In this document: positions 4,264 to 59,566 of the stretch, piece after piece
How the letters are laid out: every line of letters begins with the position of its first letter
How positions within the stretch are numbered: position 1 is the first letter of the stretch
From: Candidatus Latescibacterota bacterium
GTDB taxonomy: Bacteria > Latescibacterota > UBA2968 > UBA8231
Length of the DNA: 64,000 nucleotides
NCBI GenBank assembly: GCA_965203175.1
Contig: OZ241867.1
Location: forward strand, 1,536,001-1,600,000
Direction of reading: 5' to 3'
The notes under the pieces: model-generated
What the model saw: only the letters and a program-made list of their open reading frames with translations
Databases searched by the model: none
What the model was told of the DNA's origin: nothing
Program-made: the position numbers and the translations under genes

Positions 4264-4722
4264 CGTGATTGTACAAGCGACTCCCTCACCATTTCGCGTG
4301 ACCAATGGGTGGAAAACCGGGCGTTCTCGGCGGCAAGCAGACGCAGATTGACGCTTTCTAAGCTGCATTACAACTTAAGAAACCCGACTATCGCCTTTTA
4401 GGATGACGATTACCGCGCCAGCAAATCCGCTATCTTGCCAATATCTTGCCAAAGAAACGGCGCGGCGGCAACGCGGGAAAAAATTCATTCGGTATTGACA
4501 TTTGGGCACATTATATTCGGGGCGGACAGCGGCAGGCTTTGCGCAGGTACCAGAGACGTATCAGCCGAGGAACTCACGGAGATTGAGGCGACAGGCGCTG
4601 GTGGGGGAAGGTAGCCCATTGTCAAAGTACTCTGAAAGGTGTTGGCACGGATGTCAAAGAAACCCACTGCTAGATATGAAGCGTCTATATAATCCATATC
4701 TATATGTGAAAGGAGCCGTTGC

Positions 4723-5169
4723 ATGACACGGGATAGAACGCGTAGCAACGGGGGAAATGAGCCGAGCATTGAGATTGTCGAGTTTTCTTTTAAGCAGGGC
4801 AGTGAAGACGCAAAGGAAGAGGACCTCGCCGACGCCTTACGCGATCTTCAAGAGATAAACGACGAGGCCGACGAAGAAGGAATGCAGCCACCTTCTGAAT
4901 TGGCTATCGCCAATGCGGATTGTCTGATACGAGAAATCTATGACATATTGCCACGTCAATATCTGGTGGAACTCCTGCCGGAAGGGGTTATTGCTATCAC
5001 CGTTCCCGGCGGATTTCGGTGTTCAGTTATGTTGTTATGCGAATCTGAGGGCGGAATACTGTGCTCTGTTAATATGAACGGCAAACATCAGCGTAAACGG
5101 TATACACATGTGGACCAACTGCCGGATAGATTTCTGAGTGACGCCTTGAGTAAACTGGGACGGGAGTAA
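4723..5169 (+). CDS. acidic hypothetical protein (possible antitoxin/immunity partner)
   Basis: AAGGAG RBS; AT-richer than flanks; directly upstream of 5184-5630. Confidence 0.65.
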   Translation: MTRDRTRSNGGNEPSIEIVEFSFKQGSEDAKEEDLADALRDLQEINDEADEEGMQPPSELAIANADCLIREIYDILPRQYLVELLPEGVIAITVPGGFRCSVMLLCESEGGILCSVNMNGKHQRKRYTHVDQLPDRFLSDALSKLGRE

Positions 5170-5183
5170 GTTAGTTGGCTCAC

Positions 5184-5630
5184 ATGAGCCTCCCTCAAAG
5201 TATACCTTCGGACGAGGCTTTGGGGCGGGGCGTATTTTCAAGCAAACAGGCACGCCAAGCTAGACGCGGGACAAAGCCCATACCCCGCCATGCATTCCTC
5301 GCACAGTGGGGGAAAGTGGAAATCTCCGTTGATCGGCTTGATTTCGCAGAGCCTGAAGAGATGGCGGAGCTTGGCGACAAAGTAGCAGTTGGTCGTAGTG
5401 TAGATCGTACGGTCACATTTTATGGCTGGGCCGTCATTGCTGCTAAAGACGCCGAAAGCAATGGGCGGCAGGTGGTTTACACTCCACAATCCGATAATCC
5501 ATACCATACAGATATTATCTTGCCAGACTCCACAGCGGAGGACCGTGACGAACAAATTAGTCACGCCCAAGAGTTGGCGGATGCATCCCTATGGCGCGAA
5601 CGTCCAGACTCCACGAAAACTGACGAATGA
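5184..5630 (+). CDS. hypothetical protein, possible ADP-ribosyltransferase-like (Tse2/RES-like) fold
   Basis: Pattern EALGR...AF...ISVDR...GWAV...TPQSDNPYHTDI; alternative TTG start at 5175. Confidence 0.5.
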   Translation: MSLPQSIPSDEALGRGVFSSKQARQARRGTKPIPRHAFLAQWGKVEISVDRLDFAEPEEMAELGDKVAVGRSVDRTVTFYGWAVIAAKDAESNGRQVVYTPQSDNPYHTDIILPDSTAEDRDEQISHAQELADASLWRERPDSTKTDE

Positions 5631-5767: not shown

Positions 5768-7708
5768 GTGGATCTAGACAAACTGCTGAGCGACGTGGAT
5801 CTAGACGAAATGCTGCGCCTCTACGACGAGGCGGCTGAGGAGCTGATGCAAGTCGCCATCAGCGATGGCCACTTTGCCGACCGCGATCCAAGCGAAATCA
5901 TCTGGCCGGTGGGCAGCGACCTCAACGCGCTTGAGCGACGCGCCGAACTGATCGGCTCCATTCACGAAGGCATTCCCCCGCTCCGCGACAAGCGCCTGCA
6001 AGAGGCATACGACCACTACGAGCGCGTCGGCCCCGCCTACCACCAAGCGAACCGCCTCTACCTAGCAACGCGCCAACTCTTCGTCGAACGCGGCCGCGGC
6101 GACGCACTCGATTTCCACGCGCTCTACCAATCGGTCTATCTACACGCCCTAGGCCGCGACAACCCCTACACCCTCGACAAAGGCGAGGCCGCCCTCGTCA
6201 AGCTGCGGGTCGCCCGCGTGCCGCTGTCCCACGCCCACGCGGTCGCCGAGAAGATACAATCCGGGACGGCGCAAAAAGAGCCCGCGACCGACTCGGCCGA
6301 CGATCCGCGCTTGGCCGAACACTACGTCTGCGAAATCGACGGGGTGCGCCACGCCGGGACGCTGCGCGACCTGCTTAGCGAGGTTGCCGAGCGCGTCGTC
6401 GATTACCTCGCCGCTGGCGAGCACCTCGCCATCCGCTTTAACACCTATAGCAACTTCATCTATCTCGGTATATCGGTGTGGAAGGCTATCACGGACGCCG
6501 ACGTGCTCTTGGCCCGCATCGAGGGGCGGGTGCGCGTCCAATGGCACCAAAAGCTGTGCAAGCTGGTCCTGCTGGGTAAGGGCATGCTACTCAAGTTCCT
6601 CCAAGCCCACTCCGAAGATCCCGCCCAAATCAAGCCGAGGGAATTTTGGTACGGCCAAGAGTACAGCTACCTGACCCGCGACATGATCGACCTGACGCGC
6701 CGCTTAGTCGGCTACGTCAACCGCCTAGCAGGCAGAGCGCGCGGAGAAGTCGATCTGGTGGTCCTTCCGCCCTTGCTCGACGGCAAGGCCAAGGGCCGCT
6801 TTCTCGAATACCAGCACGTCGGACGGCGCCAGAGCCTCGGCCCATGGAGCCGTCGGGCGCGCCTCTTTCAGTGGGCTTTTCTCTACTACCGCACCGGAAA
6901 GAAAAAAATGAGCCTCCTAGCGGCTCAACTCCCAGAAGCAGAGCGCCTCAAAGCCGCCAGCGCCCAAAGCAGCGAATGGGGGAGGAAATCGCTGGACATC
7001 TTCGGCATTGAATTGACCGTAAGCGCCGATCCGCTCTTCGCCGCCACCGCCCGCGACCTCGATCTAGCCAACAAACAGGAGAAGGTCCTGTTTCTCCCCA
7101 CGCACCGCAGCCTCTTCGACCATCCGGTGATGAGTACCCTGATCCACGACCCCCGCTTCCTCGAACTGATGGGCTGGCGCGAACTTCCCGCGCCGGTGAG
7201 CCTCGCCCGCGCGCGACTGACCGAACCCGCAACCCTGCGCATTGGCGGGCGCTCTTTTTCGCTGATTGGCTTTACTACCGAGGAAGTCGATCAGATCATG
7301 GAGAAAGTCGATGGGCACGTCATTATGACCCGCTCGGCCGACACGAAAAATCCCACGCGCCGCTTTGCCGAACTCCTCGCACAGCGGCCGGGCGTTGTCT
7401 ATGGCGAGGGCACCACGGCCGCGTTTGAGCATCAGTGCTTGCCCATGCAGCACGCGCTCTTTGCCTATCTGCCGCCCGACGTGATCATCGTGCCGCTAAC
7501 TTTTCGCGGCCTGCACTCGCTGTGGCCCAAATGTCCCCGGGGCAATCTCAATATCGGCAGCGGCCGGGTCGAAGTAATGGTTTGCCCACCCATGCTCGGC
7601 GAAACCACGCTCCTGCCGCGCAAGCGCGCCCTGCGCACGCAGCTAGAGCCAGCGACGCTCTTCCAAGCCGTACACATCGCGCGGCTTTTCAATCCAGAAC
7701 CAGCCTAA
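5768..7708 (+). CDS. lysophospholipid acyltransferase (PlsC-like) domain with long N-terminal helical extension
   Basis: C-terminal PTHRSLFD (HxxxxD), YGEGT and IVPLTFRG...LWPK; the first ~400 aa are unassigned. Confidence 0.7.
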   Translation: MDLDKLLSDVDLDEMLRLYDEAAEELMQVAISDGHFADRDPSEIIWPVGSDLNALERRAELIGSIHEGIPPLRDKRLQEAYDHYERVGPAYHQANRLYLATRQLFVERGRGDALDFHALYQSVYLHALGRDNPYTLDKGEAALVKLRVARVPLSHAHAVAEKIQSGTAQKEPATDSADDPRLAEHYVCEIDGVRHAGTLRDLLSEVAERVVDYLAAGEHLAIRFNTYSNFIYLGISVWKAITDADVLLARIEGRVRVQWHQKLCKLVLLGKGMLLKFLQAHSEDPAQIKPREFWYGQEYSYLTRDMIDLTRRLVGYVNRLAGRARGEVDLVVLPPLLDGKAKGRFLEYQHVGRRQSLGPWSRRARLFQWAFLYYRTGKKKMSLLAAQLPEAERLKAASAQSSEWGRKSLDIFGIELTVSADPLFAATARDLDLANKQEKVLFLPTHRSLFDHPVMSTLIHDPRFLELMGWRELPAPVSLARARLTEPATLRIGGRSFSLIGFTTEEVDQIMEKVDGHVIMTRSADTKNPTRRFAELLAQRPGVVYGEGTTAAFEHQCLPMQHALFAYLPPDVIIVPLTFRGLHSLWPKCPRGNLNIGSGRVEVMVCPPMLGETTLLPRKRALRTQLEPATLFQAVHIARLFNPEPA

Positions 7709-10700
7709 AAAAGCGATAGCTGCTCGGCCTCCCGCCGGCGCGGCATGGCCGCATCCTCGCGCGCGAGCAACCGAGCGGGAATCTCTTCTACAAACGGCGA
7801 CAGCGCGCACTGCACCCGCTCGCCATAGCGCTGGCGGGTGCGCGCCCGCAGCAACACCAACTCCTCTTCCGCTCGCGTCATGCCCACGTAAAAGAGCCGC
7901 CGCTCCTCGGCGAGGTCGGCGTCCCGCTCGCGGAAGGGAATGAGTCCGTCCTCCACCCCGCAGATAAATACCACTGGAAACTCCAAGCCCTTGGCCGCGT
8001 GCAAAGTCATCAGCGCGACGGCCTCCGGGCCTTGGGGGCCGCCCCGCTCTTCGTAGTCGGCCTCCGCGCCTAGGAGCACGGTCTCCAGTAGCTGCGCGAG
8101 CGTTCCGGTCCCGTCCGCAACTCGGGCCAAGTGCTCCAAGTCCTCGTCCTCCGGGTCGCCGAACTCGGCCTGCCAGCGGCGCACCCAAGCACCCGCCCCC
8201 TCCTGCTCGGCCCATCGCCTGTACTCCGCTATCCGCGCCTCTAACATCTCAACCCGGTCCTGCGCTGCGGCCGACAGTTCCCCCCGCCGAACTTGGCGCA
8301 AAATGTGCGATTCCACGCCCATGGCCTCTAGCGCCTGCCAACGGCGCACATCCTCTTGCGAAATCGAAACATAACGGGCAAACGCCAACGCGGCCCGCAC
8401 GACCGGCGCTTGCAGAAAACCCTTCTGCCCGACGAGCCGGTAGGGCAGGCCCTCCTTGTGGAAGCACTCTTCCAGCACTTGGCCCTGTCGGCCGGTGCGG
8501 AAGAGCACGGCAAAGTCGGCGAAACTGCGCGTGCCCTCTGCGCCAGCATCGGTCTGCACCATGTCGGTGCCGCCGACCATGCGGGCAATCTCCCGCACCA
8601 CCGCAATGCCCTCGGCCGTCTCGCTCTGCACCTCGATTAGGCGGATTCTTTCCTTTCCCGGACGCACGGCTGCGAGTTCAATGGCCTCGCGCCCCGGATT
8701 GTGGCCGACGACGGCAGCGGCGGCCTCGACAATATGCCCCTGCGAGCGGTAATTCGCGCCTAGATGAAAGAGTCGCGTATCCGAGAAACGGTCGCGCAAG
8801 TGAACGAAGTGGTCGGGCGAAGCTCCGCGAAAGCTGTAGATCGCCTGATCTGGGTCGCCGATGGCCATCAGGCCCGCGCCTTCACCCGCCAACTGCAGGA
8901 CCAATCTATACTGCGCGGCGTTGAGGTCTTGGAACTCGTCTATCAGCAGATAGGGAAACCGCGCCCGCACCTGTTCCCGCACGGCGGCATCCGCTTCTAA
9001 GAGGCGCAGCAAGTCCAAGATAATATCGTCGTAGTCGCAGGCTCCAGATGCGTGTAGAGCTTCCTGATAGGCGTCGTAATGCGGTCGCCACTCCTCGGCG
9101 ATCTCATCCGGCTCCTGAGCGGCGGCCTTGGCCAGCGAGATGGCTTGACTAGCGGCGGCGACCGGACCCGACAATCCAGCATCCGCCAGCGCCCCTTCCA
9201 GCAACCGGCGCGCTTCCACCTCGTCGAGCACCAGCTTTGGCTCGCAGCCCAACTCCCGCAACAGCGACAACGCCAAGCGGTGAAAGGTCCCCACCTGCAT
9301 CGCACCCAGCCCACCACCCAACAATGCGCTCAGCCGCTGTCGCATCTGTCCAGCCGCCCGCCGGGTAAAGGTAATGGCCATGATCTGCCCCGGATCCACG
9401 CCATTTGCGACCAGCCGGGCAATGCGCCGCGTCAGCACCCGGGTCTTACCCGACCCTGGCCCAGCCACGACCACTAAAGGCCCTCCTTCGGCCTCTTCGA
9501 TTTGACGCTGTGCGTCGTCGAGCGCGTCCGCGTCCTGCTCCACTTGTGTGGTGCTATCAGGCCTTGGCACCTGTACCGGTGAGACGTGAACTTCCTCAGC
9601 CGTCTTCACGACCGCCGGTCCCAAGTCGAACAGCGCACCCTGCCCTTGTAAGCGCGCCCGCTCCTCCTCGCTAAACACGCTGATTACGCCGTACTCCCCA
9701 TCGTGGCCGGGGTAAATGTCCACCTCGCCGCAGCGCATCCGGCGCACGCCCTCGGCCACCAACGGCCCGGCGCAACTTTCAATCGCTTCAAGTCCGGCGC
9801 GGCGCAATACTTCGAGTTCCGGCCCTATCTCGGCTAGGAGCCGGTCGTACACAGCGCGGACTTTCTTGGACTTCGGACCAACACCAACCGCTGCGCCGAT
9901 CACTTCGTCGAGCGGGATCAAGTACTCATAGGGCGGAGCAACCTCCGGTCGAAACCCCTCCGGACGGTCGGCTAGCTTCTCCACCCGGTGCAAAACCCCC
10001 ACCGTCAGCTTGCGTCCGCACACCGGGCAGATCCCCTCGGCGGCCAGCGTTTGCGCCGGCTTGTAGCACACCGCGCACTTGCGGTGGCCGTCGTAGTGGT
10101 ACTTGCCTTCTTCGGGGTAGAACTCCAAGGTACCCAAAAAGCGCGCTGGATCGCGGTCTTTGAGCGCAGAGTAGATGCCCGGATACGAGCACTCCGTGTC
10201 AAAGCACGTGGCCTCGCGGGCCAGCTTTTGCGGCGAGTGGGCGTCGGAATTGGATACGATCGCATAGCGGTCGAGGGCCGACAGTCGCCAGTTCATCGGC
10301 GGATCCGAGGACAAGCCGGTCTCCACGGCGAAGATGTGCGGCAACAAATCCTCGTAGCACTCCTCCAACGATTCAAAACCCGACGATGCCCCCAACGCGG
10401 CAAAGTGCGGCGTCCATATATGGGCCGGGATGAAGAGCACGCTCTCGTCGGCTTCGAGACAGATTTCTAAGAGGTCGCGGCTGTCCAACCCCAAGATGGG
10501 CCGGCCGTCGGAGTGCAAGTTGCCGATAGCTCCGAGGCGGCGGTTGAGTCGAGCTACGGATTCGAGGGAGGGCAGGATGACGACGTGGTGGATTTTGCGG
10601 GTTTTGTCGCCCTTCTTGTAGATGGTGCTGATTTCCACCGAAAGCATGAAACGCACGGCGCGACGGCAGCGCTCGGGCAACCCTTGTTCCACGGCGGCGC

Positions 10701-10911
10701 GACGACCGGGTTCGAGTTGGTACAAGCCCTCTTCAGCCGGTTCGAGTTCCTCAGATAGCTCAGCAAACCACTCTGGATGCGTGTAGTCGCCCGTGCCGAC
10801 CACGTCAACGCCCTTGAGTGCCGACCACTTGTGCAAATTAGAAGGGTTGAGCTCGCGGCTCGTCGCTCGCGCAAAGCGCGAGTGCAGATGCATGTCGATT
10901 GTGAACTGCAT
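7705..10911 (-). CDS. endonuclease Q-family PHP domain fused to UvrD/PcrA-like helicase
   Basis: DMHLHSRF, GTGDYTHP, SNSDAHS, GKYHYDGHRKC..C...CPVCG; then AGPGSGKT, LIDEFQD, IGDPDQAIYSFRGA, MTLHAAKGLEFP, EERRLFYVGMTRA. Confidence 0.92.
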   Translation of the reverse strand: MQFTIDMHLHSRFARATSRELNPSNLHKWSALKGVDVVGTGDYTHPEWFAELSEELEPAEEGLYQLEPGRRAAVEQGLPERCRRAVRFMLSVEISTIYKKGDKTRKIHHVVILPSLESVARLNRRLGAIGNLHSDGRPILGLDSRDLLEICLEADESVLFIPAHIWTPHFAALGASSGFESLEECYEDLLPHIFAVETGLSSDPPMNWRLSALDRYAIVSNSDAHSPQKLAREATCFDTECSYPGIYSALKDRDPARFLGTLEFYPEEGKYHYDGHRKCAVCYKPAQTLAAEGICPVCGRKLTVGVLHRVEKLADRPEGFRPEVAPPYEYLIPLDEVIGAAVGVGPKSKKVRAVYDRLLAEIGPELEVLRRAGLEAIESCAGPLVAEGVRRMRCGEVDIYPGHDGEYGVISVFSEEERARLQGQGALFDLGPAVVKTAEEVHVSPVQVPRPDSTTQVEQDADALDDAQRQIEEAEGGPLVVVAGPGSGKTRVLTRRIARLVANGVDPGQIMAITFTRRAAGQMRQRLSALLGGGLGAMQVGTFHRLALSLLRELGCEPKLVLDEVEARRLLEGALADAGLSGPVAAASQAISLAKAAAQEPDEIAEEWRPHYDAYQEALHASGACDYDDIILDLLRLLEADAAVREQVRARFPYLLIDEFQDLNAAQYRLVLQLAGEGAGLMAIGDPDQAIYSFRGASPDHFVHLRDRFSDTRLFHLGANYRSQGHIVEAAAAVVGHNPGREAIELAAVRPGKERIRLIEVQSETAEGIAVVREIARMVGGTDMVQTDAGAEGTRSFADFAVLFRTGRQGQVLEECFHKEGLPYRLVGQKGFLQAPVVRAALAFARYVSISQEDVRRWQALEAMGVESHILRQVRRGELSAAAQDRVEMLEARIAEYRRWAEQEGAGAWVRRWQAEFGDPEDEDLEHLARVADGTGTLAQLLETVLLGAEADYEERGGPQGPEAVALMTLHAAKGLEFPVVFICGVEDGLIPFRERDADLAEERRLFYVGMTRAEEELVLLRARTRQRYGERVQCALSPFVEEIPARLLAREDAAMPRRREAEQLSLF

Positions 10912-37831: not shown

Positions 37832-40096
37832 CTAACGGCTCCCGTCGGCACCGCGCAGTGCCTCGATGCGCCATGCGAACTCTTCCTCCAGCTGGGAGTC
37901 GCTTCTCCCTCCCAGTTTGACAAACTGGATATAGCCGTCGCCATCGACAAACCAAGTCGTGGGCCAACCCTTGATGTCGGCCGTTTGCACGTATCCGTCG
38001 TCCATTAATACGGTGAAATCGTATTCGTTCTCTACCATGTACTTATCGACCTCGTCGCGCGACTTGTCGTTGCTGATGGAAATCACTTCTACTTCGGGAT
38101 CGTCGAGATAGCGCGCGTGGAACTTCTGATACTCGGGCAGCTCTGCAACACAGGGGCCACACCAAGTCCCCCAAAAGTGAAGAACGGCAATCTTGCCCTT
38201 CAGATCGGCAGAATCGACGAGTTCTCCGTCGAGCTTGGGGAGGGCGAACGGTTCGTAGGTGCGAGCCGTATCGAGCCGTGATTCCAAAATCCGCTCGCGT
38301 CTTCGGGACCTTTCCCGCTCGCTAAACACGGCGAGATACTCGTCGAGCCCTTCGCGCGAGCCGTGCCGGCGCTCGTACAGCGCTTCTAGCGCCTCTTGGC
38401 AGGGATTTTCACCCCAACTTCTGGCCTCAAAACCGGCGATGTAGGACTCCTCAGCCTTGTCGAGCCAGTTGCGGACTGCCTCGGCTACATCCCGAGTCTC
38501 CTCCTCAGTCCTCAAAACGATGGTCTTGGAATCTCGCTCTTGAAGAGCCGCCTCGGCCTCGGTCGCCATGTGCTCGAACACTTGGCCTAAATGGTAGAGA
38601 GCACTGGCGTTTCTCTCCGAGAGCTTCAGCGCCTGCTCGATCTCGTTGCGGCCTTCCTCAATACGACCTGCCTTGTAGCTAGCCCACCCGATGGCGTCGT
38701 GGACGAGGCTCAAGTAGTAGTTAAGGCGACCCTCTTTCCACTCTTCCTCTTCGGCCCTATCCATTATGGCTTGTATGCCACTCCGAGCGAGTTCGGCCGC
38801 CTCTTCGGCGTATGGCGTGTGGTCGGCCATCGAGATAGGAGCTATGGCGTACGTTAGGTGCGGGTTGTCTCGCTCGTAGCGGACCAAGCCGCGAACCGCA
38901 TCGGCGAGCTCCTCGGCCGGAACCGGCTTCATGGCTTCGAGGGTTTCGAAGAGCGTTAGGTACGCCCGCTCGCGTAAGCTATCGTCGTAGAGGGGTTTCT
39001 CTAAGAACCGAGAGACCGCATCGCGGACGAGGCGGAGTTGGTCGCGGTACTCCTGCGAGTCCTCGCCATGCTCGCGCTCGATGCGGTCAAGCTCGGGCTG
39101 TAATCGTTGGTACTCTTGCTGGTAGACCCACGACGCCTGTCTACTCTCGGGAGCCAGCGCCAGCAGCTTCGCTTCAAACTCCGCCGCTTTCTCTTCGTCC
39201 TCTAGGAAGTCGCTATAGACCGTGGCGAGCATGGTTAGGCCGTGTACAGCCTCCGGCACGGCCTTCCGGTACTCGGCAATGCCAGCCTCAATGGCGGGGC
39301 GTCGTTCCTCGGCGGGGAGCAGATCCGTCTCATTGAGAATCTTCCAATGCCAGTAGCGCACATCGGCAGAGCCCGGGGCGAGGCGCACCGCTTCTTCGAT
39401 CATAGCGAGTGCCTCCTGTGGCTTATTGGCCCGGTATAGATATTCCGCGGCGCGCCGGTAGCCGCTGACGTGATCGGGCCAACGCTCTCGCAGCAGGGCC
39501 AAGGTAGCAAGACTCGTATCCGCATAGGCGGGATCCTCTAGTGCGTAACGTGCCCAGTACTCGAGTTCCGCGCGGGCATGGAGGACCTCGGGATGGTGGA
39601 GTGTCGCCTCATCCACTGAGTCCAGAAATGCCAGCCCCTCTTCCACGCTTTTAGACTTAAGCGCCTGAAGATGCGTCGCGGCGAACTCCGGATGGGGCAG
39701 CAGCCTCCAAGCGCGCAGGCTGGGCACAGCCGCCTCGGAATGTTTCCAGTCTGCCAGAAACGCTAGCGCCTGTGCGTAGAGTCCCCACGGGTTATCCGGC
39801 TCCCGTTCCAAGATCGCGTCGGCTTGCTCTTGGATCTCTTTATGCCCGTAGATCTGCCCGTGCAACTGACGCGCGTAGAGCGCCCGTAACTCAGCGTTCT
39901 CGGGCGCGCGGTCCAACCATTTCCGGGCGAGTATAGCTCCCGCTTCGAACGACCACAGCCGATTATGCACCCGCAGCTTCGCTTTCGCTGCTTCCAGCTC
40001 TTGGGACGAGTAGTGCCGCTCGGTTCCGCAGCTAGCACAGACGACGAGAACGACTAGGGAACCGGAGATCAAACGGATTGGGAATTGATATAACAC
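37832..40096 (-). CDS. TPR-repeat lipoprotein with C-terminal TlpA/thioredoxin domain (copy 1)
   Basis: GGGAGG then GTG; VCASC lipobox; TPR-like helices; FWGTWCGPC...PTTWFVD. Confidence 0.85.
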   Translation of the reverse strand: MLYQFPIRLISGSLVVLVVCASCGTERHYSSQELEAAKAKLRVHNRLWSFEAGAILARKWLDRAPENAELRALYARQLHGQIYGHKEIQEQADAILEREPDNPWGLYAQALAFLADWKHSEAAVPSLRAWRLLPHPEFAATHLQALKSKSVEEGLAFLDSVDEATLHHPEVLHARAELEYWARYALEDPAYADTSLATLALLRERWPDHVSGYRRAAEYLYRANKPQEALAMIEEAVRLAPGSADVRYWHWKILNETDLLPAEERRPAIEAGIAEYRKAVPEAVHGLTMLATVYSDFLEDEEKAAEFEAKLLALAPESRQASWVYQQEYQRLQPELDRIEREHGEDSQEYRDQLRLVRDAVSRFLEKPLYDDSLRERAYLTLFETLEAMKPVPAEELADAVRGLVRYERDNPHLTYAIAPISMADHTPYAEEAAELARSGIQAIMDRAEEEEWKEGRLNYYLSLVHDAIGWASYKAGRIEEGRNEIEQALKLSERNASALYHLGQVFEHMATEAEAALQERDSKTIVLRTEEETRDVAEAVRNWLDKAEESYIAGFEARSWGENPCQEALEALYERRHGSREGLDEYLAVFSERERSRRRERILESRLDTARTYEPFALPKLDGELVDSADLKGKIAVLHFWGTWCGPCVAELPEYQKFHARYLDDPEVEVISISNDKSRDEVDKYMVENEYDFTVLMDDGYVQTADIKGWPTTWFVDGDGYIQFVKLGGRSDSQLEEEFAWRIEALRGADGSR

Positions 40097-40209
40097 AGAG
40101 TCCCTCCCATTAACGGAATCATCGACCCTCCCCTTCAATCGCCTAAAAAGCGCCGCCATTCTATCATTCTATCTAGAATAAACATTCTAAATCTAGTTCC
40201 CAGCCCGCC

Positions 40210-44020: not shown

Positions 44021-46306
44021 CTAACGGCTCCCGTCGGCACCGCGCAGCGCCTCGACGATCCATGCGAACTCTTCCTCCAGATGGGTGTCACTCCCCCCTC
44101 CCTCTTGGACGAACTGGATATAGCCGTCGCCATCGACGAACCAAGTCGTAGGGAAAACATTGACACCGGCCTCTTGCACGTACCCGTCGTCCACCAACAC
44201 GGTAAAATCGTATTCATTCTCCGCCATGAACCTGTCGAGCACGTCGCGCGCGTTGCCTATGGAGATGTCGTTACTGATGGAGATCACCTCCACTCCGGGA
44301 TCGTCGAGATAGCGCGCGTGGAACTTCTGATACTCAGGCAACTCTGCGACGCAGGGGACACACCAGGTCCCCCAGAAATGAAGAACGGCGATCTTGCCGT
44401 CGAGACCGGCGGAATCGACGAACTCTCCGTCGAGCTCGGGGAGGACGAACGGTCCGTAGGTGCGGGCCGTATCGAGCCGTGATTCTAGAATCCGTTGACG
44501 TCTTCGGGACCTGTCCCGCTCGTAAAACGCGGCGAGATACTCGTCGAATCCTTCGCGCGAGCCGTGCCGGCGCTCGTACAGGGCTCCTAGCGCTTCTGGG
44601 AAGGGATCTTCACCCCAGCTTCGGGCCTCAAGACCGGCGATGTAGGACTCCTCGGCCTTGTCGAGCCAGGTGCGGACTGCCTCGGCTGCATCCCGAGCCT
44701 CGGTCTCAGTCTGCAAAACGACTGTCTTCGAATCTCGCATTTGCAGAGTCGCCTCGACCTCGGTCGCCATTTGTTCGAACACTTGGCCCAAATGATGGAA
44801 CGCACTGGTGTTTTCCCCCCAGAGCTCCAGCGCCCGCTCAAGCTCGTTGCGTCCTTCCTCGACGCGACCTGCTTTGTAGCTAGCCCACCCGATGGCGTGG
44901 TGGAGGAGGCTCAAGTAGTAGTTCAGCTCCTCCTCCTCCCACTCTTCCTCTTCGGCTTTAGCGATCACGGCTTGTATGCCATCCCGAGCGAGCTCGGCCG
45001 CCTCCTCGGCGTAGGGTGTGTGTTCGGCCATCGAGAGAGGAGCGGAGTATGTTATATGCGGGTTGAGTCGCTCGTAGCGGACCAATCCGCGCACCGCATC
45101 GGCGAGTTCCTCAGCCGGAATCGGGTTCATGGCTTCAAGGGATGTGAAGAGCGTTAGGTACGGCCACCCGCGGAAGCTATCGTCGTAGAGGGGCTTCTCT
45201 AAGAACCGATAGGCTGCGTCGCAAATGAGGCGAAGCTGGTCTTGGTACTCCTGCGAGTCCGCGCCATGCTCGGGCTCGATGAGATTAAGCTCGGGCTGTA
45301 ATCGTTGGTACTCCCGTTGGAACTTCTCTCGGTGGATCCACGACGCATGGCGACTCGCGGGAGCCAGTGCCATCAACTTCGCCTCAAACTCCGCCGCCTT
45401 CTCTTCGTCCTCCAGTACGTTCCGATAGGTCGTGGTGAGTAGGGCTAGGCCGCGTACGGTCTCCGGGGCCGCCTTCCGGTACTCGGCGATGCTGGCCTCG
45501 ATAGTGGTGTGTCGCTCGTCGGTAAGGAGCAGATCCTCCCTGTTGAGGATGTTCCAGTGCCAATAGCGCACTTCGGCAGAGCCCGGTGAGAGGCGAATGG
45601 CCTCTTCGATCAGCGAGAGCGCCTCCTGCGGCTTGTCGGACCGGTAGAGCTGTTCCGCAGCCCGAAAGTAGCCGCTGACGTGATCGGGCCAACGCGCTCG
45701 CAGCGTGGCCAAGGTAGCGAGGCTCGTGTCCACATAGGTGGGATCCTCCAGTGCGTACTGTGCCCAGTACTCGAGTTCCGCGCGGGCATGGAGGACCTCG
45801 GGATGCTGGCGTGTCTCCGCATCCAGGGAGTCCAGAAACGCCATCCCCTCTTCTACTTTTCTGGGGCGAAGCGCCTGAAGGTGCGTCGCGGCGAACTCCG
45901 GCTGGGGCAGCAGCTCCCAAGCGCGCAAGCTAGACTCGGCTGCCTCGGAGTACTTCCGATCCGCCAGAAACGCGAGTGCTTGGACGTAGAGCCCCCACGG
46001 GTTATCCGGCTCCTGTTCCAAGATTGCGTCGGCTTGCTCTTGGATTTCTCTGAGCCCGTACAACTGTCCGTGCAACTGACGCGCGTAGAGCGCCCGCAAC
46101 TCAGCGTCTTCAGGCGCGCGGCTCATCCATTCCTGGCCGAATATGGCTCCTGCCTGGAACGTCCACAGCCGATTGTGTGCCCTCAACTTCGCTTTCGCCG
46201 CTTCCAGCTCTTGGGGCGAGTAGCGCTGCTCGGTTCCGCAGCTAGCACAAACGACGAGAACGGCTAGAGAACCAGAGATCAAACGGATTGGGAATTGATT
46301 TTTCAC
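44021..46306 (-). CDS. TPR-repeat lipoprotein with C-terminal TlpA/thioredoxin domain (copy 2)
   Basis: Collinear paralog of 37832-40096; FWGTWCVPC; GTG start overlaps upstream TGA. Confidence 0.85.
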   Translation of the reverse strand: MKNQFPIRLISGSLAVLVVCASCGTEQRYSPQELEAAKAKLRAHNRLWTFQAGAIFGQEWMSRAPEDAELRALYARQLHGQLYGLREIQEQADAILEQEPDNPWGLYVQALAFLADRKYSEAAESSLRAWELLPQPEFAATHLQALRPRKVEEGMAFLDSLDAETRQHPEVLHARAELEYWAQYALEDPTYVDTSLATLATLRARWPDHVSGYFRAAEQLYRSDKPQEALSLIEEAIRLSPGSAEVRYWHWNILNREDLLLTDERHTTIEASIAEYRKAAPETVRGLALLTTTYRNVLEDEEKAAEFEAKLMALAPASRHASWIHREKFQREYQRLQPELNLIEPEHGADSQEYQDQLRLICDAAYRFLEKPLYDDSFRGWPYLTLFTSLEAMNPIPAEELADAVRGLVRYERLNPHITYSAPLSMAEHTPYAEEAAELARDGIQAVIAKAEEEEWEEEELNYYLSLLHHAIGWASYKAGRVEEGRNELERALELWGENTSAFHHLGQVFEQMATEVEATLQMRDSKTVVLQTETEARDAAEAVRTWLDKAEESYIAGLEARSWGEDPFPEALGALYERRHGSREGFDEYLAAFYERDRSRRRQRILESRLDTARTYGPFVLPELDGEFVDSAGLDGKIAVLHFWGTWCVPCVAELPEYQKFHARYLDDPGVEVISISNDISIGNARDVLDRFMAENEYDFTVLVDDGYVQEAGVNVFPTTWFVDGDGYIQFVQEGGGSDTHLEEEFAWIVEALRGADGSR

Positions 46307-54670: not shown

Positions 54671-55627
54671 TCAACTGTCATCGCGATAAGGACCTGTATC
54701 AATGCCGGGTAGGGTATGCTCCAAAAGGTCTAGCGTTTGGCTGGTGAAGTACGGGTGTCCGGGTTCGGGCCAACCGAACAGGCCGCGCACTCTGGGTGTG
54801 GTGGCCGTGAAAAAGGGCAGCATGTGATCGCGTTCGCCGTAGATAAAGGGATTGGCGAACCGGGTCCAGCGATCATTATCGCGGCGACACATGGACAGAG
54901 TCCAAAAGGCGCGCTGCTTGCGCTTATTGGCAAAGGGTTGCGCCGCGTGTACTAGGTAAGACGAGTAGAAGAGAGCCGCCCGCCGCCGACCCGTGGCGGG
55001 GACCGGAGCGGACAGTTCGGTGGCTTGGCGCAGGTCTTTGAAGGATCCACCCGCGGCGTTGTCGTGGTCCAGCGCCCGCACAAAAGCGGGACCAGCTACT
55101 TTGTGCGAGCCGGGAATGACCAGCATGGGGGCACCGTCGTCTTCGACATCGTGCAGGTACACTCCCGAATTGACGTAGTCGAAACGGCCTATTTGGTCGT
55201 GGGGCGGCAGCAGGCAATTGGTGTAGTGGTCGATGTGGTAGCCCTCCCAAGGATTGTCGGGATGGCGCTTGTCAGTAGGCCCCGAGCGCATAAAAAGGTG
55301 GGCATTGCAGTAGCTGGCTTTTGCGTCCAAGCATTGCTCAAAAACGTCGAGATAAGTCTCGTTTTCTATCAGCCGATCCAAAGCCGGCGCGCCCACGGGA
55401 AATTGCGAGCGGCCCTCGGAGTGGTCGTGCGTGGTGGTGAAGCCGTCCGAGACTCCGGAGGCATTGCCGCGGTCGCAAGCGGCCAGCCATTGCTCGAAGG
55501 ATTGACCGTAGAAAATCTGTTCCATCGCCGCTAGAGCGGCATCCATCTCGTCGGCAGTGAATAGGTCGGGGACAATGATGTAGCCGTCGCGGTGGAATTG
55601 GTCGAGCTGGGCTGGCGTTAGGCTCAT
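54671..55627 (-). CDS. PhyH family dioxygenase
   Basis: LTPAQLDQFHRDGY, YHID, IPGSH, LVHAA...R. Confidence 0.88.
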   Translation of the reverse strand: MSLTPAQLDQFHRDGYIIVPDLFTADEMDAALAAMEQIFYGQSFEQWLAACDRGNASGVSDGFTTTHDHSEGRSQFPVGAPALDRLIENETYLDVFEQCLDAKASYCNAHLFMRSGPTDKRHPDNPWEGYHIDHYTNCLLPPHDQIGRFDYVNSGVYLHDVEDDGAPMLVIPGSHKVAGPAFVRALDHDNAAGGSFKDLRQATELSAPVPATGRRRAALFYSSYLVHAAQPFANKRKQRAFWTLSMCRRDNDRWTRFANPFIYGERDHMLPFFTATTPRVRGLFGWPEPGHPYFTSQTLDLLEHTLPGIDTGPYRDDS

Positions 55628-55759
55628 GGGGTCTCGATCTAGTAAGGTTGAGGTTGATTTTCAAGCGGTTGGTGGTAAGATACCGCACTCGACTAGCGAG
55701 TCAACTCAAGGAGGAAACCGGCCTTCAATGAGATTTCCGAACTTTTTCTCCTTCGTCTT

Positions 55760-55787
55760 TGAACCTGTACTTTCCGGGCGGCGTCTT
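55760..55787 (+). promoter_or_regulatory. putative ECF-sigma (autoregulatory) promoter
   Basis: TGAACC-N16-CGTCTT ending 18 bp before the sigma ATG; matches the AAC/CGT consensus of ECF promoters. Confidence 0.6.
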
Positions 55788-55805
55788 TATTTCCAGAGAG
55801 CCTTG

Positions 55806-56405
55806 ATGCAGATACCGGACCCACAACTCATAGCGCAAATAAAAGAACGCGATGAACGCGCATTCCAGCAGTTCTTTGAGCGCTATCGGGAGCAGATCCA
55901 CGATCACGTGCGCCGCATCGTTCGCGACGATGCGAGTGCCAACGATGTAGTGCAGGAGGTTTTCTTGCGAGTGTGGAACCGGGCCGGCCAATGGAGCGGT
56001 CGAGGGGCTGTAGCTGCTTGGCTGTTTAGCATCGCCACTCATCTCTCCCTGACTCACCTGCGCACCGTGCGAAGGCGGCGGGAACAGCGGCTGGAAATGC
56101 TGTCTGAAACCGTGGAGCAGGAGACGCAGCAAGTGCCCGAATGGATGATTGAGGCGGCGTCCGAGCGCCCCGACGCCCAAGTGGAACGGGCCGACCAGCA
56201 GCGCTGGTTGCGGCGACAAGTACAAGAACTGTCCGAGGACAAGCGCGAGGTTTTCCATCTGATCTACGACGCCCAAGTAGAAGTGCGGGACGCCGCCGAC
56301 CGCTTGGGCATTCCCGAAGGCACCGTAAAGTCGCGGCTGCACCACGGCCGCCGCCAACTCTCACAGGCTTGGCAGGCCATCCATAACCCGGAGGAGCATG
56401 AATGA
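55806..56405 (+). CDS. ECF (group 4 sigma70) RNA polymerase sigma factor
   Basis: Region 2 ANDVVQEVFLRVW...AWLFSIATH; region 4 LSEDKREVFHL...AADRLGIPEGTVKSRLHHGR; an upstream ATG at 55728 is possible. Confidence 0.93.
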   Translation: MQIPDPQLIAQIKERDERAFQQFFERYREQIHDHVRRIVRDDASANDVVQEVFLRVWNRAGQWSGRGAVAAWLFSIATHLSLTHLRTVRRRREQRLEMLSETVEQETQQVPEWMIEAASERPDAQVERADQQRWLRRQVQELSEDKREVFHLIYDAQVEVRDAADRLGIPEGTVKSRLHHGRRQLSQAWQAIHNPEEHE

Positions 56406-59400
56406 CATTGAATCTCGACGTACCTTGGCATAGGGAGTCCTTTGACCTTTTCGTCCACCAGCGACTGCCCCAGCTTTTGGGCGAGCGCTTGCCGCTGGCC
56501 GATTATCAAGTCGAACAACAGGACTCCTATACTTTTTCCATTAAACTGAGCTTGGGACTCGGCGATGCCCCGGTCGAGGTTGAGTACCGAGATTTGCCTC
56601 GGCCCGACCGCGATGGTCTTTTCCACATTGAAGGCAACTACCGGGTCGTGGTCCCCTATCCCGACCGGCGCGAACTCGCTCAAGCGCGGATTCTGTGCGT
56701 GGGCGAGCAGCTCTACGACTTTATTGACCAAAGATTGGAAGCGGCTCCTGAGCAATTGGCTTGGGATGGCGACTTAGTGCGGAGTTGGCTGCCGCTAGAC
56801 GCTTGGATGCGCGACTTCCACTTGGAGGCAACTTCCCAGTACCTCCAGGCGACCAACTGGCTTGACCGCTATACTCATCTGCGGCGGCTGACTTTGATCC
56901 CCATCGTTGACGAGCCTTTTGTCGACCAAGACGTTTTCCCCGACAGCCAATACGGCCTAGTGTGCCCCCACTGCACTCCCGAGGGACCCAATATCGGCCG
57001 AGTGCTAGAAGTAGCCCGCGGTGCCCGCATCCGCGACGGCAAGCTCGAACGGATCGACGAAGCGCCCGACAGCATCTTGGGTTTTTCGGCCTCCATGGTG
57101 CCCTTTCTCGAACACGACGATACCAATCGCGCTCTGATGGGCATCAATATGATGCGCCAGTGGACGAGCGCCGCCGATACCGCGGCACCGGTCCACGCCA
57201 CGGGTTGGTTCCGCCAGCAGCACGATCAGCGCTTGGCCTCCAAGGGCCACAAACCCGAACCAGCCCTAGTGCAGACGGGATACGAGCCGGAGGCCGCCGA
57301 CTTTTGGGGCGGGTACAATCTGCTGACCGCCTTCGTCATGTGGGATGGGGACACGTTTGAGGATGGCTTAGTCATTAGCGAGTCGGCCGCGGCGCGGATG
57401 GACTTTCCCGCCGCAGTGGGGGTGGGCGACAAACTAAGCAACCGCCACGGTGCCAAAGGAGTGGTGGCGCGCATCCTGCCCGACGCCGACATGCCGCAGT
57501 TGCCCGACGGTACGTCGGTAGAGCTCATTTTGAGTCCGACCAGTATGGTCTCGCGGCTCAACTTCGGCCAGCAGCGCGAGGCGGTCATGGGTCGCATTGC
57601 CCGAGCCGAGGGGACTCCGGCGGTGGTGCCGCCTTTCCAAGCACCCAGCGAAAAAGTGTTGAAAGCGCGTCTGGTTGAGGCGGGACTGCCCGAAGACGGC
57701 ATGGAGCAACTGACCCTCAAAGGCGCAAAGCTGCCCTATCGCAGTACCGTGGGTTGGGTGTACTGGGGTCTTCTGGCGGCCCACACTGCGGCCGAGCACT
57801 TGGAAACCGCGGTGATAGGAGTCGGCGGACCAGCGCTCGACATGATGGCCTACGGAGCTTTGAGCGAGGCCGGGGCCGTAGCCAATATCCACGCTTTGTT
57901 CAACACGGCCGCGGCTGAGCGGCCCGACGCCGATGCGCTAGGCCAGCGTTTGGCTTCTGACCCAATATCCCCGTCTCCGCCTCCGTCTCCACGCTTTGCT
58001 CTATTGCAGCAGTTGTTGGGTATGGCCGGGATACGGGCCGAGTTGGCGGGCGGGGCATTGCGCTTTGCCTTTGCCGAGCCGAAGGGATTGACCTTGGCTC
58101 GCCCCGTGTCGCACCCGTGGGCACCGGGACGCCAAGTAGGGACGGTGGGAGATCCCGGCGCTTTGCCTGCGGGGATCGAGTTCGACCCGATTCGAGGCTG
58201 CTACGAGGATTTGGTCGAAGCTAATACGCGTTTGCAGCGCATCATCGATAGCGAAGCGCCCGAGGCTCTGGTCGGGCCAGCAGTGGCACAGGTGACCCAA
58301 CGGGTGGAGGATTTTTTTATCGCGTTGTTGCGCCCGGAGCACCTCCACTTTCAAGCAAGACCGCTGTTTAGCGGCCGGGCCGCGCTTGTCTCTGGTTTTG
58401 AGTTGGAGCTCGACCAAGTGGGCCTACCCGAGGAGATGGCCTGGAATTTGTTCGGGCCTCAGGTAGAGCGGGAGATAGGTCGCGCCGAGGAAGTGGCGCA
58501 GCGTTCGCCCCGAGCGGCTAAGGTTCTGGACGCGATCATGGAGCGCTCGTGGGTGCTGCTGTACAGCGCCCAGCGGGTGCTAGTTGACGATGGCCCGGCG
58601 TCCACCGCAGTGGTGGCCTTTCGTCCGCAGCGTTTGGCCGGGGCCGCAGTGCGCGTCCATCCGCGCATTTGCCGACTGATGGAGCTAGATTTCGACGGCG
58701 ATCAGATCGAGGTGTTTTTGCCCCTCACTGAGGAAGCCCAGGCCGAAGCCGAAACTGCGCTGTCGGTGGCCGGGCACATACAGCGCGACGCGGATATATG
58801 GCGCTACGTGACCGACAACTACCACGGCATGATATGGGGCTTGGCGCAGCTTTGCCGCACGGAGGAAGGCCGCGCCGAAGTGGAACGGCTGACCGGAGTG
58901 GCCGTGGATGGCAGTCGGCTGTTCGTCAAGCACGACCTCAACCGCTTATTAGCTCAGGTGCTGCAGCGCGAGGGCCTAGAGCGAGCACTGGAGGTACTCG
59001 ACCAGCTAACGCGGCGCGGCTTTGAGGTCTGCAAGCAGTCGGGGGCCTCCTTCAATCCCTTCCTCGGTTCGAGCAAGGAGTGGCCTGAGCAACCCGAGGA
59101 AGCCGATTGGGACGAGTGGCAAATGTACAGCGACGAGTTAGTGGCAGCTTTCTACCAGCAGGCCGATTTCGACGACAACGACTTGGGGCCTTTGGCTCTG
59201 TTGTCGCTGTCGGGGGCGCGGGGCAACCAACAGCAGTTGATCCAATACGTGGGCGGCGGTCTGCTCTATCGGGAAGATGGCAGTCTATTCGCTCAGCGCG
59301 GTTGTTGGCGCGACGGCCTGTCGGTAGAGGAAACCAAGGTGCGGGCCCCGCGTGCCTTATGGTGGGGTCTGGCCGCCGCCAACCAGCGCTGGATTGAGGC

Positions 59401-59566
59401 GCAGGAAGCGGCCCAACAGCCCGTCCGTGCCGATTACCACGTTTTGGGCCGGGCCGCCAAGGCCGCGCAGCCGGGCGTAGTCTTTGCTAGAGCGGCTGAG
59501 CGCGGAGAGACCGATCCGCTGACCAGCCTATTCAGCCGGCTCTTTGCAGGGCTACCAGCGAACTAG
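56402..59566 (+). CDS. miniaturised single-chain RNA polymerase beta-beta' fusion-like protein
   Basis: RpoB blocks: [80 protein letters not shown]. RpoC blocks: LARPVSHPW, clamp helices, FSGRA, VGLP, VHP, LDFDGDQ, SGARG, RDGL, AA.RGETDPL. ATGA overlap with the sigma gene. Confidence 0.9.
   Translation: [1054 protein letters not shown]

Follow-up and report, generated by a model that had tools for sequence, protein, structure and literature searches.

A single-chain mini RNA polymerase paired with an extracytoplasmic function sigma factor in Latescibacterota keeps a clamp-helix hairpin and lacks the beta flap

The chromosome of a Candidatus Latescibacterota bacterium (GenBank assembly GCA_965203175.1, contig OZ241867.1) carries a two-gene cassette in which the gene of an extracytoplasmic function (ECF) sigma factor is followed by one encoding a single-chain mini RNA polymerase. 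The cassette lies in the 64,000-nucleotide (nt) stretch analysed here (positions 1,536,001 to 1,600,000 of the forward strand; hereafter the window, from whose first nucleotide all coordinates are counted). Sequence comparisons identify the polymerase as a bacterial beta-beta' core reduced to its two-barrel catalytic centre. What remains are the fork, the two barrels, the triad of aspartates, the beta lysines, the F-loop/bridge-helix region and the clamp-helix hairpin; the lobe, flap and zinc-ribbon cysteines have gone, as have most of the clamp, the insert of rudder length and all that follows the bridge helix, trigger loop included. Conservation of the sigma-polymerase pair extends over six or more phyla. 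Our preferred reading, to which we give a probability of about 0.45, somewhat short of even odds, is that sigma binds to the hairpin and makes up a minimal holoenzyme with the enzyme, the operon itself being started by the host polymerase with the same sigma.

Retained and lost parts of the mini polymerase

The polymerase gene and the features discussed below are, in order along the plus strand:

56402..59566, + strand: single-chain mini RNA polymerase of 1054 amino acids (aa), an RpoB-like half (residues ~1-550) fused to an RpoC-like half (~550-1054)
56402..56791, + strand: N-terminal domain (residues 1-130), weakly matching the first conserved beta blocks in collinear order
56831..56887, + strand: fork/rifampicin-cluster-like block TSQYLQATNWLDRYTHLRR (residues 144-162), aligned to beta 474-560 of PDB chain 8i23_C
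57356..57385, + strand: FEDGLVISES (residues 319-328), the beta barrel strand with the E-D acidic pair
57386..57424, + strand: 13-residue linker AAARMDFPAAVGV between FEDGLVISES and GDK, in place of the beta flap domain
57425..57460, + strand: GDKLSNRHGAKG (residues 342-353), the beta active-site lysine motif, GDK beginning at 342
58094..58120, + strand: LARPVSHPW (residues 565-573), matching the beta' N-terminal 'LAxPVxHxW' block
58175..58327, + strand: clamp-helix-like hairpin (helix 592-616, turn SEAP 617-620 and helix 621-642 in the AlphaFold2 model)
58328..58381, + strand: shortened connector/switch-2-like stretch ending in LFSGRA (residues 655-660)
58562..58576, + strand: YSAQR (residues 721-725) in place of the beta' 'NRAP' motif
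58682..58702, + strand: ELDFDGD (residues 761-767), the catalytic aspartate triad in a DxDGD motif
59210..59413, + strand: SGARGN block (residues 937-942) and bridge-helix-like helix (975-1004), from a profile match and an AlphaFold2 helix

The description of the protein as two shortened halves, RpoB-like and then RpoC-like, rests on Pfam, NCBIfam and PDB matches. Pfam placed Rpb2_3 at residues 146-210, Rpb2_6 at 340-455 (E 1.2e-31) and Rpb1_2 at 736-787 (E 8.1e-12), and the NCBIfam matches (rpoB, E 6e-47; rpoC, E 1.1e-26; and beta/beta' fusion models) all lay far below their cut-offs. Against PDB chains, residues 131-469 matched beta and residues 653-826 matched beta', and family profiles built from 18 sequences for the beta-like half and 22 for the beta'-like half gave E-values of 3.4e-77 and 9.5e-54 (whole protein), respectively. 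An AlphaFold2 model of the whole protein, made with 57 homologs, had a mean predicted local distance difference test score (pLDDT) of 91.6 and a predicted template modelling score of 0.88, and its top Foldseek matches were beta and beta' chains (E 2.7e-21 to ~1e-18). Structural matches in BFVD were weaker than the bacterial ones (best E 1.5e-17 vs 2.7e-21), and the PHROGs matches were to beta- and beta'-like families. Further relatives were drawn from one genome per species (185,579 species), a search that returned 177 stretches, of which 79 loci were kept; conservation is given below either for the 57 aligned homologs or for the 73 full-length proteins of these loci.

A preliminary description of this DNA had proposed that the mini polymerase keeps the hairpin on which sigma region 2 docks. 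The coordinates and sequences it quoted were correct, the 45-residue string that it cited being residues 595-639 (58184-58318), and retention of the hairpin is borne out by a profile match, by the AlphaFold2 model and by the presence of the element throughout the family. With the window protein alone, phmmer aligned residues 597-637 to S. coelicolor beta' 340-380 (3.0 bits, sub-threshold but collinear), and the same stretch was also weakly aligned to B. subtilis beta' 254-284. The 22-sequence profile gave the hairpin 12.9 bits (conditional E 1.6e-6, independent E 0.29, accuracy 0.91) in a position collinear with the main beta' match. A two-helix hairpin, as expected of the clamp coiled coil, was modelled in the whole protein and again in a 271-residue fragment (residues 560-830, 28 sequences; hairpin pLDDT 95-97), and a structure search with the fragment returned beta' chains only among the 50 PDB matches listed (E ~1e-16), with 227-264 of the 271 columns aligned at 23-29% identity. 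Given that the root-mean-square deviation from these chains was 12.5-14 Å, the orientation of the hairpin in the isolated fragment is unreliable.

The segment spanning residues 600-660 has a fixed length of 61 residues in 55 of the 57 homologs, in which the key hairpin residues are kept at 84-100% (N608 96%, R610 89%, R613 84%, P620 100%, L623 98%, L631 88%, R634 88%) and Y601 at 81%. An N-x-R-L-x-R core and an A-P turn are common to the hairpin and beta' in the printed alignments. Opposite Arg or Lys of the S. coelicolor and B. subtilis beta' subunits, the window protein has E602, D603, A607, Q612, G625, V628 and A629; the earlier remark that basic residues of this surface have become acidic or neutral holds for the window protein itself, the positions with lost charge being variable family-wide. 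The accompanying idea of a specificity retuned for the cognate sigma found no support, as the N-x-R-L-x-R core is kept, the lost-charge columns vary and region 2.2 of the sigma factor is of the ordinary kind. The ratio of nonsynonymous to synonymous substitution rates (dN/dS) of the hairpin against eight clade members ranged from 0.03 to 0.62, a noisy estimate from a short stretch.

The same description had held that the flap is lost, which proved to be a family-wide feature. The flap is gone, given that only 20 residues part the E-D pair from GDK, a distance constant in 73 of 73 full-length relatives and found in 56 of the 57 aligned homologs (31 residues in the remaining one); the 13 residues between FEDGLVISES and GDK in the window protein stand where a flap domain of ~135-240 residues would be expected. 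Blocks 126-206, 205-269, 261-298 and 307-478 of the beta profile correspond to residues 468-559, 625-689, 757-794 and 931-1116 of the beta chain 8i23_C, whose flap region (795-930) is without counterpart in the family profile, ~137 beta residues being replaced by ~9. On E. coli beta (10ma_I), the block resumes at profile position 306, corresponding to residue 1057. The lobe is likewise reduced: upstream of profile position 126, which matches beta 468, about 310 beta residues have shrunk to about 20, and the N-terminal domain contributes two stretches (profile 12-37 to beta 32-57 and 54-106 to beta 103-157), neither of them significant on its own. Several positions of the TSQYLQATNWLDRYTHLRR block, aligned to the rifampicin-cluster/fork region, differ from the beta sequences in the HMMER alignments.

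In the beta' half, the LARPVSHPW block matched weakly but collinearly (profile 14-54 to S. coelicolor beta' 67-108, 0.7 bits); H571, P572 and W573 are invariant in the family, and the zinc-ribbon cysteines ahead of the block are absent. Between W573 and residue 600 there are 13-29 residues in the 57 homologs and 13-41 in the 73 locus proteins, vs ~230 in beta'. From the hairpin match to the main beta' match, the profile counts 10 positions vs 35 residues in S. coelicolor beta', a shortened connector that leaves no room for the rudder loop; F656, S657 and G658 at its end are kept in 95-96% of homologs, and we label this stretch switch-2-like. The region between the beta' barrel and the SGARG/bridge-helix block is reduced as well. 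The bridge helix was found both as a profile match (365-464 to beta' 770-867, 43 bits) and as a modelled helix at residues 975-1004, after which only 50 residues follow in the window protein and 47-67 across the family. Such a short tail leaves no place for a trigger loop or for C-terminal rpoC domains, and the profile search of PDB chains gave no match past beta' 867.

The sigma factor, its promoter and their genomic setting

Upstream of the polymerase gene lie:

55760..55785, + strand: ECF-type promoter (-35 TGAACC at 55760-55765, 16-nt spacer, -10 CGTC at 55782-55785)
55806..56405, + strand: ECF sigma factor gene, with its likely start at M61 of the long open reading frame (ORF) 55626-56405

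We place the start of the sigma factor at M61 because distant homologs align only from about residues 54-65 and because the promoter sits inside the long ORF. Both regions expected of an ECF sigma factor were found (Sigma70_r2 at residues 83-150 and r4_2 at 193-245 of the long ORF), and the protein scored 98.5 bits against the NCBIfam model TIGR02937 (sigma70-ECF; cut-off 42.9), with scores below every cut-off for the 24 named ECF subfamily or equivalog models among the 25 NCBIfam families listed. In an alignment of 45 sequences, the region 4.2 motif P-x-G-T-V-K-S-R-L and a Trp in the linker are invariant, and region 2.2 (D-x-x-Q-E-V-F-x-R-V-W) is nearly invariant and resembles that of ordinary ECF sigma factors. 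In the clade to which the window belongs, the TGA stop codon of the sigma gene overlaps the ATG of the polymerase gene (ATGA). Pfam revealed polymerase domains only, and no anti-sigma domain, in this second gene.

The 79 loci carry the labels Latescibacterota, Poribacteria, Chloroflexota/Anaerolineae, Planctomycetota, Armatimonadota, Hydrogenedentota and Gemmatimonadota. In 75 of them, a homolog of the sigma factor (38-97% identity) precedes the polymerase gene on the same strand, at a distance of at most 363 nt in 65 loci and of 1.3-2.1 kb in ten Latescibacterota loci with an ABC transporter gene in between (L040, L048, L050, L051, L053, L056, L057, L059, L061 and L077). The sigma gene is fragmented or partial in L018 and L048; in L023 a sigma remnant stands beside a truncated polymerase gene, and the sequence of L043 stops 52 nt upstream. 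When all ORFs were clustered, only the sigma factor (67 of 80 sources) and the polymerase (76 of 80) were common across clades, all other clusters being confined to 24 sources or fewer. A FastTree phylogeny of the 73 full-length proteins, which largely follows phyla, places the window protein in a Latescibacterota clade.

The -10 element of the promoter ends ~20 nt upstream of the sigma start codon. Of 76 upstream regions from related loci, 72 contain GAAC-N18-GTC and one more the N17 variant (73 of 76 in total); of the three misses, two (L021 and L032) are due to an extraction offset that cut the site off and one (L072) to a degenerate -35 element. A position weight matrix built from 56 distinct sites found a single site of at least 9 bits in the window, with a score of 38.9 vs a maximum of 15.2 in 20 shuffled sequences, and exactly one site per locus in 75 of the 79 loci (1,103,498 bases). 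In L068, where no sigma gene is adjacent, the site stands directly upstream of the polymerase gene. The preliminary description had suggested recognition independent of the -35 element, an idea contradicted at the one promoter found: its TGAAC element is conserved at a fixed spacing and region 4.2 of the sigma factor is invariant, and an intact -35 box together with an intact sigma region 4 argues against such recognition at the operon promoter. GTC is a known core of the ECF -10 consensus (PMC7598289).

Some loci depart from this layout. The intervening ABC exporter is a protein of ~598 aa with ABC_membrane and ABC_tran domains, and in L072 (1284-5233) two ABC exporter genes separate the ECF promoter from the sigma gene. 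Poribacteria loci L026, L031-L035, L037 and L038 have a conserved 64-73-nt spacer between the two genes with a [CT]T[AT]TAAT motif that may represent a separate promoter of the housekeeping type; in 6 of the 10 short spacers the motif has the form TTTATAAT. Extra inserts lengthen the spacer to 190-263 nt in L028, L029, L036 and L042. In L014 (5735-9144) the polymerase gene is intact and the sigma gene and promoter are lost, whereas L023 (5770-8916) looks like the product of a deletion that fused a sigma remnant to a polymerase gene without its first 88 codons. The Armatimonadetes locus L076 (4898-7990) has the polymerase as two ORFs of 410 and 610 aa, reflecting a frameshift, an assembly error or a true split.

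The neighbours of the module in the window are metabolic genes on the other strand (PhyH, Gfo/Idh/MocA, methyltransferase, AstE/AspA), and no integrase or transposase was matched by Pfam in the 11 neighbouring ORFs scanned. We considered and rejected an anti-phage defence system, given these metabolic neighbours and PADLOC results that comprised no family for the polymerase and two weak, chance-level matches for sigma. The 1068-aa ORF at 7705-10911 of the window, a candidate for another mini polymerase, turned out to be a UvrD-type helicase. Nowhere in the window did a match to an Rfam family attain the gathering score, and a scan for an intrinsic terminator after the polymerase gene yielded no excess over shuffled sequences (6 sites vs 3.9 ± 1.8). 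Elsewhere in the window, 37832-40159 and 44021-46306 on the minus strand encode paralogous proteins of ~770 aa with TPR repeats and a C-terminal AhpC/TSA-thioredoxin domain. In the L050 subclade of Latescibacterota, the module is preceded by genes for a 343-aa DksA/TraR zinc-finger protein and a 315-aa protein of unknown function (L050:1402-3367) and followed by those for a BlaI-like repressor and a BlaR1-M56/TonB_C protein (L050:9308-12138).

Possible roles of the sigma-polymerase pair

On the polymerase, regions 2 and 4 of ECF sigma factors occupy the sites that those of primary sigma factors use (PMC6372665). In the reading that we prefer, sigma region 2 would have its dock at the conserved N-x-R-L-x-R face of the retained hairpin, and the resulting minimal holoenzyme would initiate at ECF-type promoters. 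The first transcripts would be made by the host RNA polymerase with the same sigma from the TGAACC-N16-CGTC promoter, setting up a positive loop. As the host polymerase must first read this conserved promoter, sigma must also fit the host core, a need with which its ordinary ECF appearance agrees. Region 4, the flap being gone, might be placed by the DNA, by the sigma linker, in which a Trp is invariant, or by a different surface of the mini enzyme. A laboratory mutant of E. coli RNA polymerase without the flap reportedly fails on -35-dependent promoters; if so, the mini enzyme either positions region 4 differently or skips this promoter. A more demanding version, which we put forward tentatively and hold to be the less probable of the two, is an orthogonal two-protein system in which the ECF sigma factor would drive the 1054-aa core at a full -35/-10 promoter with region 4 placed without a flap, the core in question operating without alpha, omega, flap, lid, zinc ribbon or trigger loop.

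A number of observations, to which the active-site losses described below should be added, weigh against the preferred reading. An ordinary-looking ECF sigma factor could work with the host core alone. ECF promoters generally depend on their -35 box and a flapless E. coli enzyme reportedly fails on -35-dependent promoters, so the conserved -35 box fits the host polymerase better than a flapless enzyme. Inspection of sigma regions 2.1-2.2 against the hairpin in 17 paired loci revealed no covariation, the sigma side hardly varying, and the overall conservation of the hairpin is average (38th percentile of 42-residue windows). L014 and L068 have an intact polymerase gene with no sigma gene adjacent to it. 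As weak evidence, natural fusions of the two proteins were found neither among 120 listed proteins of 579-1845 aa (the longest, of 1077 aa, has no sigma Pfam domain) nor among 150 listed representatives or 81 proteins of 1846-5000 aa. Finally, neither the window nor the 1.10 Mb of related loci contains a second promoter site suggestive of a regulon.

Much of the catalytic centre is conserved. The beta barrel motifs FEDG (319-322) and GDK...KG (342-353) are both in place, and across phyla there is little or no variation in the fork, PFLEH..NR.LMG.NM.RQ, GDK.NRHG.KG, DFDGD and SGARG blocks. Among the 73 full-length relatives, the E and D of the beta E-D pair are kept in 66 and 67, respectively, position 344 is K or R in all and position 352 in 71; of the triad, the first Asp is kept in 70 and the other two in all. 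Whole-gene dN/dS of the window gene against eight clade members is 0.15-0.18.

Eight residues are described as invariant in all two-barrel polymerases in PMC2919709: three Asp, a beta Asp, two beta Lys, a beta' Arg and a beta' Pro. Mapped onto the family columns by means of alignments and of conventional numbering, all eight are kept by only 38 of the 73 relatives. The window protein keeps six (the triad, the beta Asp and both lysines) and has S722 and Q724 at the Arg and Pro columns, which are R in 51 and P in 48 of the 73; its E761 falls in a column that is N in 44. We take the S722 and E761 columns to be the equivalents of beta' Arg425 and Asn458; beta' Asn contacts the sugar of the nucleoside triphosphate (NTP). 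Ser for Arg together with Glu for Asn before DFDGD is found in 20 of the 73 (the window, 18 close relatives and L020), and the clade of the YSAQR type carries an inserted loop at the Arg and Pro columns, where the MAFFT and phmmer alignments differ and the model has its lowest pLDDT (66). Both sugar-contacting positions have thus changed jointly in the window clade, with dN/dS still at the low values given above. A preprint (10.1101/2020.06.30.179606) attributes the selection of the E. coli enzyme against 2'-deoxyNTPs (2'-dNTPs) mainly to the beta' Arg.

The other losses are scattered. Six Chloroflexota loci (L071, L072, L073, L075, L078 and L079) have A-Y in place of the beta E-D pair; at the first Asp of the triad, L041 and L049 have N and L020 has Y; the second beta Lys gives way to M in L062 and to A in L066; and the beta' Arg is lost in L054/L055 as well as in the window clade. 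Active-site losses thus occur in several separate lineages, the genes staying full length, and this scatter lends some probability to both a sigma-independent enzyme and a core mimic that titrates sigma.

The first of these, a polymerase that is under the control of sigma but does not use it, strikes us as unlikely, if still worth weighing. Sigma would serve the host core only and the mini enzyme would act in the manner of YonO, the RNA polymerase of the Bacillus prophage SPbeta, with the hairpin kept for structural reasons or for another partner such as a NusG-like factor. YonO transcribes as a single chain, with no sigma requirement named in the available text of PMC5467207. An ordinary ECF sigma factor with an intact region 4.2 and a strong -35 box, alongside an enzyme without the flap that positions region 4, is what such an arrangement would look like. 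The two loci in which the polymerase has no adjacent sigma gene (the L014 gene being under purifying selection, dN/dS 0.15) and the [CT]T[AT]TAAT motif ahead of the polymerase gene in Poribacteria point the same way. However, the conservation of R610, R613 and R634 and of the hairpin length has no other known role, the tight translational coupling of the two genes and the almost constant presence of one sigma lineage beside the polymerase exceed what simple regulation needs, and a limited search found no other type of promoter.

Alternatively, the protein might be a core mimic that serves as a sigma sink, that is, an anti-sigma-like brake, or that forms some other non-productive complex, with catalysis secondary or decaying. 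It sits where ECF operons usually hold an anti-sigma gene, in an operon without an anti-sigma domain whose second gene bears the known docking element of sigma region 2, and binding through the hairpin would limit the positive loop. While the repeated, independent active-site losses in full-length genes and the lack of a locally detectable regulon are consistent with this possibility, we consider it improbable: a chain of 1054 aa far exceeds the need, near-invariant catalytic blocks across phyla indicate selection on nucleic-acid and NTP sites, and the window protein retains the whole triad, the E-D pair and both lysines. Least probable of all is that the window clade has a polymerase of altered substrate or product (relaxed discrimination against dNTPs, short RNAs) owing to its two exchanged sugar-contacting residues, for the joint Arg and Asn replacements in 20 relatives, the reported role of the Arg and purifying selection in the clade would suit this idea but the loop is remodelled, of low pLDDT and differently aligned by the two programs, and R725, three residues on, might substitute.

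Relation to known polymerases

The sigma-paired mini polymerase family seems to be undescribed. Its members appear as 'hypothetical protein' among the source names listed, one atlas cluster being automatically named 'DNA-directed RNA polymerase family protein', and a representative library contains 347 clusters at E <=1e-30, about 80 of the 150 listed being full length (979-1101 aa). Full-text literature searches, which reached neither subscription journals nor some supplements, returned no description of the family; the polymerase terms occur 0 times in the main text of the ECF reclassification paper PMC7826278, and one supplementary file of that paper has no Rpb2, PF00562, Poribacteria or Latescibacteria.

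Should the sigma factor drive the enzyme, this natural deletion would show which parts of the core are needed for sigma-dependent promoter opening. The flap would then be dispensable for a -35-dependent sigma, contrary to the textbook view, and the enzyme would rank as the smallest sigma-dependent RNA polymerase known and would define the minimal demands of sigma on the core. The module would also bridge full multisubunit polymerases and minimal enzymes of the YonO type, and could provide synthetic biology with a compact, probably host-independent two-gene expression system. If the protein is a sigma sink or sigma-independent instead, it still represents a widespread family without a function name, in which the repeated loss of 'invariant' residues needs explaining.

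Compared with the bacterial core and an ECF sigma factor, both halves are homologous, and the position of the hairpin, the DFDGD, ED and GDK motifs and a -35/-10 promoter of the ECF type are shared. The two large chains of the bacterial core total ~2700 aa, to which alpha2 and omega are added, whereas the mini enzyme is one chain of about a third of that size, without the flap, the lobe, most of the clamp, the zinc cysteines, the rudder-length insert, the trigger loop or the jaw.

In function, the closest characterised relatives are YonO and the alpha-less enzymes of jumbo phages. YonO, too, is a single chain of ~100 kDa with no trigger-loop homology and no accessory domains (PMC5467207); by the same paper it has, a few residues aside, no active-centre homology to multisubunit enzymes, whereas the mini polymerase aligns with them over hundreds of residues. 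YonO is prophage-borne, in contrast to the chromosomal mini polymerase, which is sigma-paired and located among metabolic genes. The non-virion RNA polymerases of jumbo phages (AR9, phiKZ) are likewise alpha-less beta/beta' homologs that use one extra specificity protein for promoter recognition, according to PMC7598289. They are described there as four polypeptides and a specificity subunit without sequence similarity to sigma, unlike the mini polymerase with its one chain and true ECF sigma factor.

Natural full-length beta-beta' fusions of the PRK09603/PRK14844 type have the same order of beta followed by beta' and are among the best NCBIfam matches of the mini polymerase. Their models cover 2839-2890 positions and all domains, in contrast to the mini polymerase, which scores 150-159 bits against cut-offs of 4632-5372. 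The collections searched also hold other single-chain beta-beta' fusions of intermediate size (P0274, P0277-P0285; atlas clusters of 1221-1787 aa), some such fusions carrying alpha-subunit domains (1917-2414 aa); P0283 is named from a Poribacteria bin, and several fusions in the same list contain inteins or bear a phage label. The flap-deleted E. coli mutant, finally, is said to share with the mini polymerase the combination of clamp helices without a flap that leaves region 4 undocked; by comparison with this laboratory construct, the mini polymerase is a natural flapless enzyme, paired with a sigma factor whose own promoter has a strongly conserved -35 element.

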